A stretch of DNA of 64,000 bases from a virus (Duplodnaviria; Caudoviricetes): positions 1 to 64,000 of the IMG/VR virus record IMGVR_UViG_3300027884_000039; one strand, written 5' to 3'. Shown piece by piece: positions 24,213 to 54,689 of the stretch. The position numbers and the translations under genes were made by a program. The notes below the pieces were generated by a model, which saw only the letters and a program-made list of their open reading frames with translations, was not told where the DNA came from and made no database searches. Position 1 is the stretch's first letter. Each line of letters begins with the position of its first letter.

Positions 24213-24293
24213 ATACGTTTAGTTTATTTACAGCCCCGTTACGAAGACCTCCAAAGGGAAGAGGCGGGGGCTGCTATCATAATTTTCCCGACT

Positions 24294-24686
24294 TTAGACG
24301 GGTAAACGCCGAAGTTGAAAAGACATGTATAGGCATTCACATAATAGAAATACGGCCCAATACGGAGGGGATTCATGAAACACATATTTTCCTATCAGGA
24401 ATAGCGCTACCATAAATCCCAATATCTGTAGCCACATATAAAACTCTCTATATACGCGCTTTCTCTTGGTATCTGTAATCGGTACCTGCGGTTGTTCTTC
24501 CACTGGCTCCCATATAATGAACCGAAAGCCATTGAATGTTCTCTTGGCACCATTGATTAGCACCACTACACATGGATAACCTTCGATGTCCTCATAAATC
24601 TCCGTCACCCCCTCGTGCCCTACTTCAAAATAGTCAATATCGTCGGGGTTTTCATTACTGTTAAAGATTCTAACATTGGTATTCAT
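24294..24686 (-). CDS. Hypothetical membrane protein (2 C-terminal TMs)
   Basis: Hydrophobic C-terminus. Confidence 0.65.
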   Translation of the reverse strand: MNTNVRIFNSNENPDDIDYFEVGHEGVTEIYEDIEGYPCVVVLINGAKRTFNGFRFIIWEPVEEQPQVPITDTKRKRVYREFYMWLQILGFMVALFLIGKYVFHESPPYWAVFLLCECLYMSFQLRRLPV

Positions 24687-48576: not shown

Positions 48577-48823
48577 GGGATTAGTAATGACAAGTATAAC
48601 GGCTATTGTAGGAATCGACCCAGTGACGGGAGATGAAGGCCTTTGGGCTTTTTTAGATGATTTGGGAAAGTGCACGCCGATGGTATGTGCGGATGAAGAG
48701 CGCGTACAAATGATGTTTCATGTGGCTGAACAAATGAGGAAGGCGAGCGGAATCGAATATAAGGTATTACAATTTTCCACGCGTGAGGATATCACAGCAG
48801 CAACTAAAAACAAGTACAGATGA
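48577..48823 (+). CDS. Hypothetical protein
   Basis: ORF from MGLVMTS (DEGL...PMVCAD..R). Confidence 0.65.
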
Positions 48824-49650
48824 GAACACTAGTCATGGGTGATATTCACGGAGCGGCCAAAGCGATTACACAATGCCTAGAAAGGAGTGGCTTCGACCGG
48901 GAGAATGATCGCCTCATCTTCATCGGGGATATGTGCGACGGCTGGCCCTACGTCTATGAAGCTGTGGAAGTGATTTTACAGGTAAAGAATCGGATCGATA
49001 TCCTGGGTAACCACGATGTATGGTTTCGGGATTGGCTCGTCAGCGGTTTCCATGGTGACCCGATTGGCCCCTGGATGCAAGGGGGAAGTGCCACGGCCAG
49101 GTCCTACCTGCGCCAGATCGGGAAGGAAGACATGATTGAAGAGGGATATCATGGCTATCGTACGTCACTTAATCCTGGCGATATACCGGTATCGCATAAG
49201 CAGTTTTTCAATGATATGGTATTATATTATGTAGATGAGCATCACCGGCTCTACGTGCATGGCGGATATACCCGGACTATGTTGATTGAAGATATGAAGC
49301 GGATCAATCCGGTTGAATTGTATTGGAACCGTGAACTATGGAATCAGGCGATGTGTTGTAAGGGAAATGTACGGTTGAAGACCAAGGATAAGTTCAACGA
49401 AATATTCATTGGCCATACGCAAACGACGATCTGGACAACGAAGGAAACCAAGACGCTTAATGGATTCATCTTGCCGGCCGGTGAACCCATCACGAACCCG
49501 ATGTATCATGGTGGCGTATACAACATCGATACTGGCGCTGGCGGCAGGGGTAAGCTCACGATCATGGACGTAGATACCAAGGAGTGTTGGCAGAGCGACC
49601 TGGTGATGGAGCTATATCCCAATGACAAAGGAAGACATGTAAATTATTAA
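48820..49650 (+). CDS. Calcineurin-like metallophosphoesterase (NinI/PPP-like)
   Basis: GDIHG, GDMCDG, GNHD, VHGG, IGHT, IDTG. Confidence 0.95.
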   Translation: MRTLVMGDIHGAAKAITQCLERSGFDRENDRLIFIGDMCDGWPYVYEAVEVILQVKNRIDILGNHDVWFRDWLVSGFHGDPIGPWMQGGSATARSYLRQIGKEDMIEEGYHGYRTSLNPGDIPVSHKQFFNDMVLYYVDEHHRLYVHGGYTRTMLIEDMKRINPVELYWNRELWNQAMCCKGNVRLKTKDKFNEIFIGHTQTTIWTTKETKTLNGFILPAGEPITNPMYHGGVYNIDTGAGGRGKLTIMDVDTKECWQSDLVMELYPNDKGRHVNY

Positions 49651-49660
49651 AAACAATCAT

Positions 49661-49996
49661 ATGGCATTCAAGATCGACAAACATCACCCGCTTCCAGAAG
49701 ATTTCCGCCCATCAAAACCAATGGCGAAATATCCGCTATATAAAATGGTAGATGGAGACTCGTTTTTTGCGCCGGACAAAACAGAACAAAAGTTAAAGTC
49801 ATCTGTTGCGGGAATAAAAAGGCAATGGATCGCTGACGAAATTAAGACCAGGGAGCAAATAGCAGAAGATCGATGGGTTTACCTGGAATGCGTAGAGGAA
49901 TATGAAGGTGAACTGGTTAAAGGTTGCCGCGTTTGGCTAAATCCGCCGACCACTAAAAAAAAAATAAACCAGACGGAAGCGGACCCCGAACCGTAG
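49661..49996 (+). CDS. Hypothetical DNA-binding-like protein (KYPLYKMVDGDSFF)
   Basis: Recurrent phage motif. Confidence 0.65.
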   Translation: MAFKIDKHHPLPEDFRPSKPMAKYPLYKMVDGDSFFAPDKTEQKLKSSVAGIKRQWIADEIKTREQIAEDRWVYLECVEEYEGELVKGCRVWLNPPTTKKKINQTEADPEP

Positions 49997-50045
49997 GCCA
50001 AATGCTAAGGGATCTAAAAGCGCCGCCAGAAAAAAAGGGGAAACA

Positions 50046-50578
50046 ATGAGCGCCGACTACATGAAATTCAAGCAATGGTTCGACCACAAGTTGGAGGTGG
50101 GCGCATATCCTAACCCTGAGATGGCTGAATGGCGAGCGGAGGATTACGCCTATGTAATCAATGTATCTGGCGCCTGGTACGCAGGTGAAGCGCCGATGTA
50201 TCACCAGACCCGCTATTTTTGGTTTCCGATGAGTGAAGGCAAGAAGGACATGGGTATGAATAGTATTTACGGCGCCCTGGTGATCTTATGGGAGGCCGAG
50301 CGTCGTAATGATCGAGTATACTTGCATTGCCATAGTGGGAGTAACCGCAGTTGGACAGTAGCCGCAGCGTATCATTACCTGCGTACCGGCACGCATTGGA
50401 CCGACCGGTTAAGAGCGGGCCACACTTGAATAAACTGCTGGCCAATTGTGATCGGCATTATTTGCCGCATCAATCCGAAATGGAAGCGTGGCTTGCTCAC
50501 TTGCGCAAGGAACTGGAAACTGGTATGACCCCGTCTTTGCTCACGATGAGTAAGATTGAATGCATAAATAATTTTTAA
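50046..50578 (+). pseudogene. Dual-specificity (CX5R) phosphatase split by an apparent 1-nt frameshift near 50395
   Basis: VYLHCHSGSNRS in ORF 50046-50429; a protein-like continuation LDRPVKSGPHLNKLLANC.. lies in the overlapping frame. Confidence 0.7.
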
Positions 50579-51010: not shown

Positions 51011-51362
51011 TTTGCGTATTTCCAAAAACCTTATTATCTTGAACCCACGTTCCAACTCCCCAGGAGTATGTAGTTGGGGGGACTTTTTTTAATTAATGAA
51101 ATCCATTTCGAACAGAAAGCAAGAGTACAGTTACAATCAGCAACCAACAGTTCTTTTTAAGTTTTAGCAAGGACATTTTTTGATTGAGGATGAAGATTGA
51201 CTTTTGGCAGCAGTTTTGAATGAAGAGTAAACTATTAAAAGAGGGGCATTAAGTTCCTACTTGGCAGTAGCCAGGTATAGAAGGTTAGACTTGGTATTTA
51301 ACAGACATTATCGTCCCCTGTTTCTACAGGGGACTCTTTTAACCAAAAAAACTACCCGCTAT

Positions 51363-51878
51363 ATGACCAAAATTAATGGGCATCTTATTCGCGAAGTGCT
51401 CAAAGAAAAAATGTTGGAGTTGACGACCATCAATTCTACTTTTGAAGAAAGCTTATACAAATTTGAAAGTGAAGAAAAGCCATCCCCTGCCGCGTTGATG
51501 GCACGCATCATGGAACTGGAAACTGCGGTTGCCAAATTGCAAACTCTGCAATCGCAATATAACTTAACCGTAATGGTGCAGATTAATGAAGTAGCGATGC
51601 CCCTGGAAGAGGCGATCAAGCTGGTGGGGGGTGCTGGCCGCTCTTCGAAAAGATGGCGCGAAGCCGCCAAAGGAGAAAAGGTTGACCGGTATGAACGTCG
51701 TGCAAATAGGCAGCGAGAGAAAGACAAGGAATATACCGTCCCCACGATCTCAAAAGAAAAGGCGTTGGAATATGCCAAGAAGGCTGAACAATACGCAGGT
51801 AGTCTTCGCAAGGCCATCGCCTTAGGAATTTTAACAGATATTGAATTTGATGATAGTGTGGCGGCGCTCCTGGAGTAA
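51363..51878 (+). CDS. Coiled-coil protein, DIP1984/DUF6847-like
   Basis: ELE..VAKLQ..QSQYN..V....MPLEEAI pattern; start reassigned to ATG 51363 after an A-rich leader. Confidence 0.65.
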   Translation: MTKINGHLIREVLKEKMLELTTINSTFEESLYKFESEEKPSPAALMARIMELETAVAKLQTLQSQYNLTVMVQINEVAMPLEEAIKLVGGAGRSSKRWREAAKGEKVDRYERRANRQREKDKEYTVPTISKEKALEYAKKAEQYAGSLRKAIALGILTDIEFDDSVAALLE

Positions 51879-51895
51879 TCCCGGACACCAGTCAC

Positions 51896-52077
51896 TTGGT
51901 TGGTATGCGAACTCTACAAGCTACTACTTAACAGTAGTGACTTGCCCATCACTGGGATTATGCGCCTTCTTATCTAAATAGCCGTTATGTGTGTCTTGCT
52001 AAAGAACGGTTGATAACAAGCAGTAGTAACCACAAATGGGAGTTGGACGGTACTCGTTGCTATCAAATACCAACCAA
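51896..52077 (+). ncRNA. Structured RNA 1 (~180 nt), abutting tRNA-Met
   Basis: Perfect 11-bp closing stem ttggttggtat/ataccaaccaa plus nested gcga/tcgt, aactc/gagtt, actact/agtagt, ttatc/gataa and gccgtt/aacggt. Confidence 0.75.
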
Positions 52078-52080
52078 CAT

Positions 52081-52151
52081 CGCGAGGTCATCTAACGGTA
52101 GGATACCGGGCTCATAACCCGAGAATTCGGGTTCGATTCCCGACTTCGCAA
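52081..52151 (+). tRNA. tRNA-Met (CAT), initiator type
   Basis: C1:A72 mismatch; GGG/CCC in the anticodon stem; CTCATAA loop; TTCGATT T-loop. Confidence 0.9.
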
Positions 52152-52165
52152 CAAAACTATAACCA

Positions 52166-52954
52166 ATGAAATTAAATGTACTCCTTGCGCGAGCCGAACA
52201 TACTGGTGCGCAGTTCAAAATGATGATTCAAACATATGCACATACTTTCACGCATAAACAGGAGATATTCAGGGGCACTAAGAAGACTTATACGAAGGCA
52301 CCGGGTTCGGATGATTTCCCCAACATGAGCGGCAACGAAAAAGTGCAATCGTCGGTCGATGAATATTTGCAATGGTTTGAAGACACAGCCGACGAGTTTA
52401 TTACTCACCGTTTTAACATTGAGGCTACGAATGCCTCCGGGCCAAAAGCTGAGCTTATCGTCGGTGGGCAGAAATTTGGCAGTTATAGCACCTGCGAGCT
52501 AATGCGGCTCAATGATTTTTTAAATAGTCCTGAATTACTGAAGATGTATTCTATCCTGCCTGTGCGTAGTGATACAGAGAACTGGAAGGAGACTACCGAT
52601 CCGGAAGGCATAAAAAAGAAGTTGTGGGAAACCGACATCAAGAAACTACCCCATAACACGACGATTAAAGGTTGGATTATCCTCCCCGATCCGAATGTGG
52701 AGAAACTGAAGGCCGGTAGTCCGTATACACCTATTAAGGAGTCCAGTGATACGAAAGTGTATTTAGGGGAACAGACCATGCAGAAGTTTAGCGGGGAATG
52801 GAGTCATGCTGATCGGGCCAGTCTGCTGCGCAGGCTCACGATGCTAAAAGCGTCCGTGAAGGAAGCGCTAGTCACAGCCAATGAAACGCCAATGGTGGAA
52901 TCGGAATTAACGGCGAAAAAAATATTCGGGTATTTGCATCGTGGAACAATTTGA
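52166..52954 (+). CDS. DUF7873-like coiled-coil protein
   Basis: MKLNVLLA, FRG..KTY, ATNA...AELIVGG, ELMRL, LPVRS..E.W, KFSGEW...R..LL.RL..LK.SVKEAL..AN, IFGYL. Confidence 0.75.
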   Translation: MKLNVLLARAEHTGAQFKMMIQTYAHTFTHKQEIFRGTKKTYTKAPGSDDFPNMSGNEKVQSSVDEYLQWFEDTADEFITHRFNIEATNASGPKAELIVGGQKFGSYSTCELMRLNDFLNSPELLKMYSILPVRSDTENWKETTDPEGIKKKLWETDIKKLPHNTTIKGWIILPDPNVEKLKAGSPYTPIKESSDTKVYLGEQTMQKFSGEWSHADRASLLRRLTMLKASVKEALVTANETPMVESELTAKKIFGYLHRGTI

Positions 52955-53159
52955 CAAAGCCTTAGCTTTAGCCTTAGCTTAACACGATTCTAGTTAAATC
53001 AACTTTAGCTTCGCGTCAAAAGCCTCAGCTTTGTATGTTAGATCGTGGTGTCAAGCTGACCAGAGCGGAAGGGCACAGGTTCGAATCCTGTCTCGGCCTC
53101 CAGATCATTCGATCCGGAGGCCGAGTAGATACAGCGGCTAGATCATTCTGCATTTTAGC
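52951..53159 (+). ncRNA. Structured RNA 2: (C/T)TTAGC-repeat domain plus a YrlA-like circularly permuted tRNA mimic
   Basis: ttgaca/tgtcaa and cacgat/atcgtg stems; T arm ACAGG-TTCGAAT-CCTGT; acceptor CTCGGCCTCC/GGAGGCCGAG closed by a loop; D-like loop AGCGG; GCGGAA/TTCTGC anticodon-stem equivalent. Confidence 0.8.
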
Positions 53160-53161
53160 CT

Positions 53162-53246
53162 CAGTAAGCTTGAAAACATTGCGAACGTCACGCTGACTTG
53201 AAAATCAGCAGCAGACTGAAAATCTGCCCGTGATTTGGGATCACGT
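53162..53246 (+). repeat. Tandem anticodon-stem-loop-like hairpins
   Basis: GCTGA-CTTGAAAA-TCAGC, GCAGA-CTGAAAA-TCTGC, a weaker CTTGAAAA loop at 53169, and CGTGAT-TTGGG-ATCACG. Confidence 0.65.
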
Positions 53247-53250
53247 TTGG

Positions 53251-53281
53251 GGCCAGGCAGGATACGACCTGGCCCTTTTTT
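53251..53281 (+). terminator. Intrinsic terminator
   Basis: ggccagg/cctggcc stem plus T6. Confidence 0.75.
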
Positions 53282-53300
53282 ACGGTTGAAATGCACAATC

Positions 53301-53711
53301 ATGAAAGATAAAATCGACTCACTTAGCAAAATCCAACTGGATATGAAAATTGAAGTAGAACATGAAGAAGGAATTCCAATGGCGCGGCGAAAGGCGCCGA
53401 GTCTCTATGACCAATTATTTCCGGACCTCATTATGTTGACAGACAAGAAGAGTTTATTTTTCAAGACGGAAAAGGCAAAAGAAACCCTTACTCAATTTCG
53501 CTATTGGCTTAAAGCATATGAGCAAACACAAAAGGCATTTAATTATTTCGCACAGGTAGGATTTAGTACCCATGATAGGAAGATCGGTATCCGGATTTGG
53601 TGTTATGCAAAAACGGTGGAACAAAAGAAGCCCCTTAGTACGGCGCAGCAAACGCTTAAAAAACGAGTGAAGAAAAATGCTGCTAAGAAAAAAGCCATAA
53701 AACATGAATGA
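53301..53711 (+). CDS. Hypothetical basic protein
   Basis: Start reassigned to MKDKID. Confidence 0.65.
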   Translation: MKDKIDSLSKIQLDMKIEVEHEEGIPMARRKAPSLYDQLFPDLIMLTDKKSLFFKTEKAKETLTQFRYWLKAYEQTQKAFNYFAQVGFSTHDRKIGIRIWCYAKTVEQKKPLSTAQQTLKKRVKKNAAKKKAIKHE

Positions 53712-53877
53712 TCAAGATATTAAAATATTACGAACAGCAGGTGATGGGCAACTCAAATCCGTAACTATTAAATTGGATAATGGGGATGTGTTGCACTTTA
53801 ACGATCCTTTAACATTAATCATATGGAAGGATATATTAAAGCTTGCTGCGGAAAAGGCAGAGAATATGCTGCGGTAG
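53704..53877 (+). CDS. Hypothetical 57-aa protein whose stop lies inside tRNA-Ile
   Basis: Hand-translated MNDQDIKILRTAGDGQ... Confidence 0.5.
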   Translation: MNDQDIKILRTAGDGQLKSVTIKLDNGDVLHFNDPLTLIIWKDILKLAAEKAENMLR

Positions 53878-53940
53878 CTCATCGGTTAGAGTAACAGACT
53901 GATAGCCTGTTGGGGGGTGGTTCGATTCCACCTCGCAGCA
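53868..53940 (+). tRNA. tRNA-Ile (GAT)
   Basis: GCTGCGG/TCGCAGC acceptor; GCTC/GAGT D stem; CTGATAG loop; GGTGG-TTCGATT-CCACC. Confidence 0.85.
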
Positions 53941-54030
53941 CGATGGTGAGGGAATAAGCGTGGGGGCTGCGATTGCCCGGTCTAACGTCCGAAAGCAGGA
54001 CGATGCGAATAGCTCCTCATTAATACTTAA

Positions 54031-54249
54031 ATGATGAAAGAAAAGCAACTCGAATACTTGAACTTCAAAGGGTCTGTTCGGTACCAGTTGGAAGATCAAA
54101 AATGGTTTGGGGAAATCCTGAATATTACAGACTTGGTGTACTACGAAGCCGAATCGATTAAAGGACTGGAAGATGTGTTCAAGGAGGCGGTGGATGATTA
54201 TCTGGATACCTGCAAAGAACTTAATAGGGAAATACCCTGGAAAAAATAA
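54031..54249 (+). CDS. hicB: Solo HicB-family antitoxin domain
   Basis: Y.NFKGSV.Y..ED..WFGEILNITDLVYYEAESI..LE..FKEAVDDYL..C. Confidence 0.85.
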   Translation: MMKEKQLEYLNFKGSVRYQLEDQKWFGEILNITDLVYYEAESIKGLEDVFKEAVDDYLDTCKELNREIPWKK

Positions 54250-54252
54250 TAA

Positions 54253-54343
54253 GCCGAAGTGCCGGAATTGGTAGACGGCATCGATGATATCGATGGAGCT
54301 TATACTAGATTAGCTCGTGGGGGCTCGTATCCTCCCTTCGGCT
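54253..54343 (+). pseudogene. tRNA-Leu-like (class II) element with a collapsed anticodon loop
   Basis: GCCGAAG/CTTCGGC acceptor; GGAATTGGTAGAC D arm; long variable arm; ATCGA-TGATA-TCGAT (5-nt loop); T-loop CTCGTAT. Confidence 0.7.
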
Positions 54344-54347
54344 CAAT

Positions 54348-54689
54348 ATGGCCTACTCATTCTTAACCAATATTCCCGATGAGGTGGTACCCCTGCTGAT
54401 TCGGGCACAGACCAATGCAGGGTTTGAGGCATATAGTTTCAAGCGCTATATTGACGGAAGAGGTTTATGCGGATTGATGCCAATGACTTTTACAATAGGA
54501 CTGTTTTATGGTCTTGATGCGGATGGTAACTATACTGGTCGATATTGTTTTGCTGATTTGGCTCCCGCTAAGTTAGCAATAGAGACCTGGGACGGTATAG
54601 GTGATCCGCCAGGACCCTGGATTAAGCACAATGGCATACCCACATACTACAATCCCGAGTGGGTGAGGGAAAATAACTATATTCAATAA
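54348..54689 (+). CDS. Hypothetical protein
   Basis: ORF (GRYCF...A..WDG.GDPPGPWIK). Confidence 0.7.
   Translation: MAYSFLTNIPDEVVPLLIRAQTNAGFEAYSFKRYIDGRGLCGLMPMTFTIGLFYGLDADGNYTGRYCFADLAPAKLAIETWDGIGDPPGPWIKHNGIPTYYNPEWVRENNYIQ

Follow-up and report, generated by a model that had tools for sequence, protein, structure and literature searches.

RNA C and RNA D of phage T4 are about 120–140 nt long, compared to about 175 nt for the element described here (they are set apart by description), and we know of no protein gene described as linked to them. These T4 RNAs (species 1 and 2) are small, stable transcripts that lie among tRNA genes and are co-transcribed, and their biological roles remain unknown (PMC3014915). 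GOLLD and ROOL are structured RNAs of phages and prophages without a known role that often occur near tRNA islands, including one GOLLD example downstream of a Met-tRNA (bioRxiv 10.1101/2024.12.08.627333). Both are much larger than the RNA studied here (GOLLD often exceeds 800 nt) and assemble into nanocages made of RNA alone, and no protein partner is known for either; their Rfam models matched neither this RNA nor the related loci. By analogy of context, T4 RNA C/D, GOLLD, and ROOL are the closest known counterparts of the element.

A different comparison was drawn in a preliminary description of this DNA, in which a long stem with internal loops was likened to the protein-binding module of Y-type RNAs. 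Y RNA and YrlA, which partner with Ro60 (Rsr), are likewise 100–200-nt noncoding RNAs in which the paired ends form the protein-binding stem, and bacterial YrlA carries a tRNA-like module. In contrast, the RNA considered here has a multi-branched fold, not a single long stem, and its linked protein has a fold different from that of Ro60. The Y_RNA and YrlA models (RF00019, RF02553) gave no match over the RNA even at E ≤ 10, and TROVE (PF05731) had no match in the 79-kb phage record (control genomes were matched; a host-encoded Ro lies outside this scope). Lacking both a model match and a TROVE gene, the Y-RNA comparison is unsupported.

The window, i.e., the whole stretch of DNA that was analyzed, comprises positions 1 to 64,000 of a 79-kb IMG/VR virus genome (IMGVR_UViG_3300027884_000039; Duplodnaviria, Caudoviricetes) that is 100% complete according to CheckV. 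Near-identical contigs were found in JGI metagenome 3300005602 and in one run labelled soil metagenome. Between 51 and 54.4 kb, the genes are on the + strand and separated by unusually long gaps, with several tRNAs among them. In this region, a gene encoding a helical protein of 171 aa (P0001; 51363–51878, +) is followed by the 182-nt structured RNA (51896–52077, +), a 3-nt CAT spacer (52078–52080, +), and a tRNA-Met(CAT) (52081–52152, +). A terminator-like hairpin with TCTTTT lies 5′ of the gene (51313–51334, +; a pattern match from a consensus scan) and is possibly the end of the preceding transcription unit. Upstream of these features, at 48820–50429 (+), are genes for a NinI-like metallophosphatase and a dual-specificity-phosphatase-like protein, a pair that is also present in L030, L074, and L075, which are syntenic relatives.

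Comparative structure of the RNA

The perfect 11-bp terminal stem claimed in the preliminary description was borne out: TTGGTTGGTAT (51896–51906) and ATACCAACCAA (52067–52077) pair in 11/11 Watson-Crick positions. The MFE fold of 51896–52077 is multi-branched, and the helices within the closing stem, said to number at least five, are indeed nested. The fold z is −2.08 for the + strand (6/200 shuffles fold equally well) and −3.09 for the − strand, and uninterrupted closing stems of at least 11 bp and at least 10 bp occur in 15% and 40%, respectively, of control 300-nt windows (G·U allowed, 130–230 nt separation). Because the fold z is modest and closing stems are common in controls, the evidence from this single sequence is not beyond chance by itself.

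Homologous sequences were decisive, since compensatory changes were found to keep the fold in divergent homologues. A covariance model made from the window sequence alone with a hand-set structure (R1) matched three loci, L008 (66 bits, E 1e-16), L029 (31 bits), and L030 (28 bits). The model rebuilt from the window and these three sequences (R2) scores the window at 190.6 bits and matched L040, which was left out of model building, at 23 bits (E about 1e-5), beginning 6 nt after the stop codon of the homologous gene; P1 in L040 is CGGGGAAGUAU/AUACUUCCCUU in place of UUGGUUGGUAU/AUACCAACCAA. These five sequences (hereafter, the close group) fit a P1-P2-P3-P4 model directly after a P0001-family gene, and the upstream proteins of the four homologues are 48–57% identical to P0001. 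Across the close group, 88.6% of the cells are paired and 31/51 pairs show compensatory changes (five sequences only, in an alignment fitted to the model), values that were reached by 0/500 shuffles, with 29–50% in slid controls. RNAalifold, run on a four-sequence alignment, independently gave the same helices. On these comparative grounds, 51896–52077 is confirmed as a real, conserved structured RNA.

The same data bear on the idea that the stretch has no dedicated function and serves as a spacer, or is left over from a terminator or from a mobile element that has decayed and whose inverted ends pair by chance. Such an origin would fit a single-sequence z of only −2.1, a − strand that folds equally well or better, and the frequency of long closing stems by chance. 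It is disfavored by the covariation, i.e., compensatory changes in 31/51 pairs despite a diverging primary sequence, and also by the G·U bias toward the + strand, the single copy in the genome, and the fixed position by one gene across phages whose proteins are only 33–57% identical. We regard this origin as highly improbable.

Six helices are backed by the comparison (P1, P2, P3a, P3c–e, the apical P3f, and P4), whereas helix 4 (P3b; 3 bp, UGG/CCA) is unsupported, with 55.6% of its cells paired in the five sequences. The 5′ strand of P1 (51896–51906, +) pairs with its 3′ strand (52067–52077, +), to which it is a perfect complement, with compensatory changes in 5/11 pairs. P2 (51917–51944, +) is a hairpin with compensatory change in 8/11 pairs and 75.5% of cells paired, with good support for its inner 7 bp and weak support for its outer 4 bp. 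The long irregular arm P3 (51945–52040, +) contains helices 3, 5, and 6, namely P3a, P3c–e, and the apical helix P3f (51980–51986/52005–52011, +), which are 92–97% paired. A CUAAAU motif (51974–51979, +) forms a 5′-side bulge that abuts this apical helix, and U.AAUA.C is among the unpaired letters that are invariant in the five sequences. P4 (52041–52054, +) is a hairpin of 3 bp whose loop contains ACGG (AGU/ACU versus AAU/AUU and others; 86.7% paired), and is connected to P1 by the joining strand J4/1, CGUUGCUAUCAA (52055–52066, +), which by eye resembles CGCUCCUYUCA and CUUGCUCCUGU of the relatives.

The + strand is favored because the paired cells include 16 G·U versus 6 A·C, and the flanking genes and tRNAs are all on this strand. 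Small ORFs overlap the RNA, but we read the evidence as speaking against them, given the pattern of compensatory changes and the differing lengths of the gaps between homologues in the alignment. A search of the phage record returned a single match, showing that the RNA is single copy in its own genome.

The RNA could not be matched to a known family in the preliminary description, and the Rfam search bears this out, although a description outside Rfam is possible. None of the 4227 covariance models of Rfam 15, which include 6S RNA, T-box, and self-cleaving ribozymes, gave a gathering-score match to the RNA, either for the window or for 13 related loci, and a cmscan of 51700–54600 at E ≤ 10 returned no match over 51896–52077. 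ARAGORN and Rfam identified no cloverleaf, tmRNA, or tRNA-like match in the RNA, and found only the neighboring tRNA-Met. Exact-pattern scans with the P1 arms returned nothing from viral contigs and five matches from metagenome contigs, all of which were rejected as unrelated palindromes.

The linked gene family and elements at distant loci

A word-based search with P0001 identified two relatives. One of them (L008) is 57% identical, and past the gene its contig has 175 nt that share the closing stem and blocks of conserved sequence with the window, then a tRNA-Met that starts 3 nt past the RNA and is interrupted by the contig end. When 1.8 billion representative proteins were searched with a profile, the family grew to 595 clusters (at 50% identity) at E ≤ 1e-3, including 142 at E ≤ 1e-30. 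Further members were located on the contigs L029, L030, and L040 and at 16 distinct IMG/VR loci. No significant match to the family was found in Pfam, PHROG, NCBIfam, or PADLOC, and its profile matched no PDB sequence. Three family members compared by tblastn to 50,697 GenBank phage records (T4-like phages included) returned no hit, nor did a blastn search of GenBank phages with 51300–52800. Because no member was found in these GenBank records, the family appears to be confined to uncultivated phages.

The AF2 model of P0001 (54 sequences; pLDDT 94.8) consists of long helices and a small sheet, and the conserved basic residues of the family are K86, R93, R118, and R149. The only clear structural match to the predicted fold was 3KDQ (Foldseek TM 0.71–0.78, probability 1.00), a Corynebacterium diphtheriae protein without known function or RNA partner. 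In the VIA comparison, 3KDQ scored Z 13.0 over 150/152 residues (rmsd 3.8 Å), and the next rows were generic coiled coils. Based on this model, P0001 is predicted to share a 3KDQ/DIP1984-like fold over its whole chain, at the level of fold only: identity between the two proteins is 13–16%, and they have no sequence-level match. In the literature covered, nothing was found on the function of 3KDQ/DIP1984, septicolysin, DUF7873, or DUF6847. Structural matches to IS110-type and TIGR-Tas proteins (Z 7–8) were taken as generic helical matches. Neighbors in the ESM Atlas, which we treat only as leads, include clusters with DUF6847 in 15–16% of their members, and a cluster that bears the automatic name ‘Siphovirus Gp157 family protein’. 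The idea that P0001 and the downstream DUF7873 gene represent two paralogous cassettes of shared architecture was rejected at the level of sequence and profile (no BLASTP alignment, hhalign probability 0.9%).

Beyond the close group, elements of similar size follow the family gene in about 15 phages (L002, L016–L027, L032, L035, L039, and L042; hereafter, the distant group), whose proteins are 33–40% identical (50% for L002). In 18/18 tabulated family loci, an element begins 6–80 nt past the stop codon and has a closing stem of 10–15 bp; its length is 139–207 nt, and 167–182 nt in 16/18 loci. Similar elements were recognized by eye at four further loci (L024, L035, L039, and L042), and in L042 P1 is interrupted and a U9 run is present. 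A stem of at least 10 bp occurs within 300 nt past the stop codon in 19/20 loci, compared to 40% of control windows, and the fold z is negative in 13/13 RNAs that were folded (−1.5 to −4.0). The pattern [CU][UCA]NAAU directly before a perfect hairpin of at least 5 bp is present in 11/18 cassette RNAs, at positions 65–94, versus 12% of shuffles, 10% of other windows, and 4/18 reverse complements; this CUAAAU-type pattern and the other short motifs were picked after inspecting the data.

Sequence comparison was less informative for the distant elements. R2 with filters off detected none of them, although L027 (10 bits) and L025 (5.5 bits) scored at the expected coordinates, and blastn-short among the cassette RNAs found likeness only within the L018/L020/L022 trio, with no similarity among the other distant elements. 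MAFFT produced no usable alignment of the distant RNAs. The distant elements probably belong to the same RNA family as the close group, but homology is unproven because R2, blastn, and MAFFT all fail, and only position, size, stem, and short motifs are shared.

RNA ends and tRNA-island context

In the five close sequences, the RNA starts 6–17 nt after the stop codon, and neither a promoter nor a known 5′ processing site was found between the stop codon and P1. Because 6–17 nt leaves no room for a promoter, the RNA would be made together with the gene as its 3′ extension. On the 3′ side, three arrangements were found. In six loci, P1 is followed at a distance of 0–4 nt by a tRNA, which is tRNA-Met in the window and L008, tRNA-Ile in L030, tRNA-Leu in L025 and L027, and without assigned identity in L017; the 3-nt spacing of the window is also present in L008 and L030. 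A U-run directly follows P1 in four loci (L029, L040, L032, and L002), and a separate terminator hairpin follows the RNA in seven (L016, L018, L019, L020, L021, L022, and L023). Given that its 3′ side abuts a tRNA, a U-run, or a terminator hairpin, the element is always the last part of a unit of processing or transcription. Because the identity of the tRNA varies, or a terminator takes its place, the element does not require tRNA-fMet.

The preliminary description had placed the end of the RNA 3 nt before a tRNA-fMet, and the CAT spacer followed by an initiator-like tRNA-Met(CAT) agrees with this. The tRNA was identified by ARAGORN and by Rfam (53 bits) and has no encoded CCA. Read from the sequence, it has a C1×A72 mismatch, an anticodon stem closed by three G-C pairs, A73, and U11:A24. 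Bacterial initiator tRNAs have A11:U24, so the tRNA is initiator-like yet not canonical. It had also been proposed that the RNA is released by tRNA-fMet processing. The part of this proposal that concerns the 3′ end stands as plausible: RNase P cleavage of the abutting tRNA, which lies 0–4 nt after P1 in six loci, could set the 3′ end of the RNA and would leave the CAT spacer as a 3′ tail. The part that concerns the 5′ end does not stand in the same way, since no known processing site is present there.

The short distance to the stop codon, with neither promoter nor known 5′ processing site, and the constant location where a processing or transcription unit ends would also suit a 3′ UTR element that acts in cis on the upstream gene and is never released. 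Such an element would stabilize the mRNA against 3′ exonucleases once RNase P has cut or transcription has terminated, or would allow the protein to exert feedback on its own mRNA. Joint gain and loss of the gene and the element (see below) would be expected as well. However, a simple hairpin suffices for 3′ protection, and the conserved 175 nt or so, with covariation in six helices and an internal motif that does not vary, exceed what a stabilizer needs. The feedback version overlaps with a ribonucleoprotein, the reading we prefer, because it too means that the protein binds the RNA. We consider an unreleased 3′ UTR element possible, if rather unlikely.

Comparison of gene content among loci revealed that the only gene common to all of them is the 171-aa P0001-family gene. 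Among cassette loci, DUF7873 and the metallophosphatase recur in L030 only. Conversely, 30 DUF7873 loci from IMG/VR contain no family gene within 1.5 kb, and R2 gave no significant RNA match in the 21 of these 30 loci to which it was applied. A single-protein scan of viral contigs for close DUF7873 relatives returned none. L074 and L075, which have the same gene order as the window (DSPc phosphatase, small genes, DUF7873), contain neither the gene nor the RNA, and the corresponding slot holds just a tRNA-Arg or a tRNA-Phe. Because the gene and the RNA are jointly absent in these syntenic relatives, and the gene alone is constant, the two form one accessory cassette in a variable tRNA slot. The constant partner of the RNA is the upstream gene and not tRNA-fMet, a point that was missed in the preliminary description.

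The slot before DUF7873 (52081–52165; L074:1830–2000, L075:1904–2000, L070:1410–1500) contains a different tRNA in each phage and looks like a hot spot of tRNA exchange; the window has tRNA-Met there, and the relatives have tRNA-Arg, tRNA-Phe, and tRNA-Lys. The start region of DUF7873, AACTATAACCATGAAA, is conserved in L074 and L075 (the two relatives read). Downstream, at 54253–54344 (+), ARAGORN reported an over-long tRNA-like gene, Ile(GAT), that was not reported by Rfam at gathering score. Comparable genes are present in the relatives (L070:2628–2725, L074:3364–3456, L075:3200–3294), where ARAGORN gives no anticodon; those of the window and the relatives are 92–98 nt long, and those of the relatives precede a tRNA-Met by 0–8 nt (L070, L074) or ~0.7 kb (L075). 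These may be intron-containing or aberrant tRNAs. After the DUF7873 gene, a weak YrlA match at 53067–53149 (+; 19 bits versus a gathering score of 69, E 1.3) overlaps a weak tRNA match at 53006–53091. Elsewhere in the window, amid small early-type genes, a Type-P3 twister ribozyme was identified at 24215–24309 (−; RF03154, 53.2 bits versus a gathering score of 39.9).

Overall, tRNA or tmRNA genes are present in 15/22 loci (flanks of 0.25–5 kb per side were read). In three large uncultivated phages, a tmRNA lies 140–470 nt downstream of the cassette (L016:3355–3706, L025:3659–4018, L032:2319–2671), with Rfam scores of about 113 bits for two of the three.

The location within tRNA/tmRNA arrays raises the question of whether the RNA works without the protein, as a stable RNA that matures like a tRNA, with P1 as an acceptor/T-arm minihelix mimic for RNase P at the RNA's own 5′ end. 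It might act, for instance, as an RNA-only assembly, or as a decoy or sponge that captures a host nuclease, a tRNA-modifying enzyme, or a component of a defence system. P1 lengths that cluster at 10–12 bp are in line with this, and T4 RNA C/D (PMC3014915) and GOLLD/ROOL (bioRxiv 10.1101/2024.12.08.627333) are found in tRNA regions as well. However, a protein-independent RNA leaves unexplained why the RNA has a constant place after one gene and never occurs alone, and it has no tRNA-like features according to ARAGORN and Rfam, nor an encoded RCCA after P1. We judge this explanation improbable.

A probable ribonucleoprotein cassette

Taken together, the observations are best explained by a tRNA-island cassette in which a gene for a ~170-residue protein is the 5′ half and a ~175-nt conserved structured ncRNA is the 3′ half, and whose product is probably a ribonucleoprotein; we hold this reading to be likely, with some reserve. 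Because it always follows the gene and matches no described family, the RNA is probably the RNA half of a new phage RNA–protein pair. The RNA would be transcribed together with the upstream gene, as its 3′ extension. Where a tRNA follows, an RNase P cut at the tRNA 5′ end would set the 3′ end of the RNA, here leaving ...CCAACCAA-CAU, and where a U-run follows P1, intrinsic termination would do so. P1 would then protect the RNA end from 3′ exonucleases. The protein made from this transcript would finally have the RNA as its scaffold or bound partner, yielding a small phage ribonucleoprotein. Among the functions considered, this role as partner or scaffold seems the most likely one, and a ribonucleoprotein would be the most economical mechanism. 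Linkage is what suggests binding between the protein and the RNA; the 3KDQ fold has no recognized RNA-binding domain.

Based on the location of the cassette, its target is probably part of the biology of tRNAs or translation, or of a phage–host conflict over tRNAs. A more specific version, which we put forward tentatively and consider unlikely as a whole, is a new RNP cassette that moves among phage tRNA islands, for which the tRNA-maturation machinery makes both ends of the RNA, and which acts on tRNA metabolism or on tRNA-targeting defences; the 10–12-bp P1 would then mimic an acceptor/T-arm minihelix.

With 595 clusters, the protein family is a large one, but Pfam, PHROG, and NCBIfam contain no model of it. 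Because so large a family without a model gave no hit among the 50,697 GenBank phage records, the gene–RNA pair marks a common, unstudied function of uncultivated phages. The element also offers a clear natural case of a non-tRNA RNA for which RNase P and intrinsic termination appear to be interchangeable ways of setting the 3′ end. This compact ~175-nt RNA joins T4 RNA C/D, GOLLD, and ROOL among the enigmatic RNAs of tRNA islands and, unlike these, has an obligate conserved protein-coding neighbor that provides an experimental handle.
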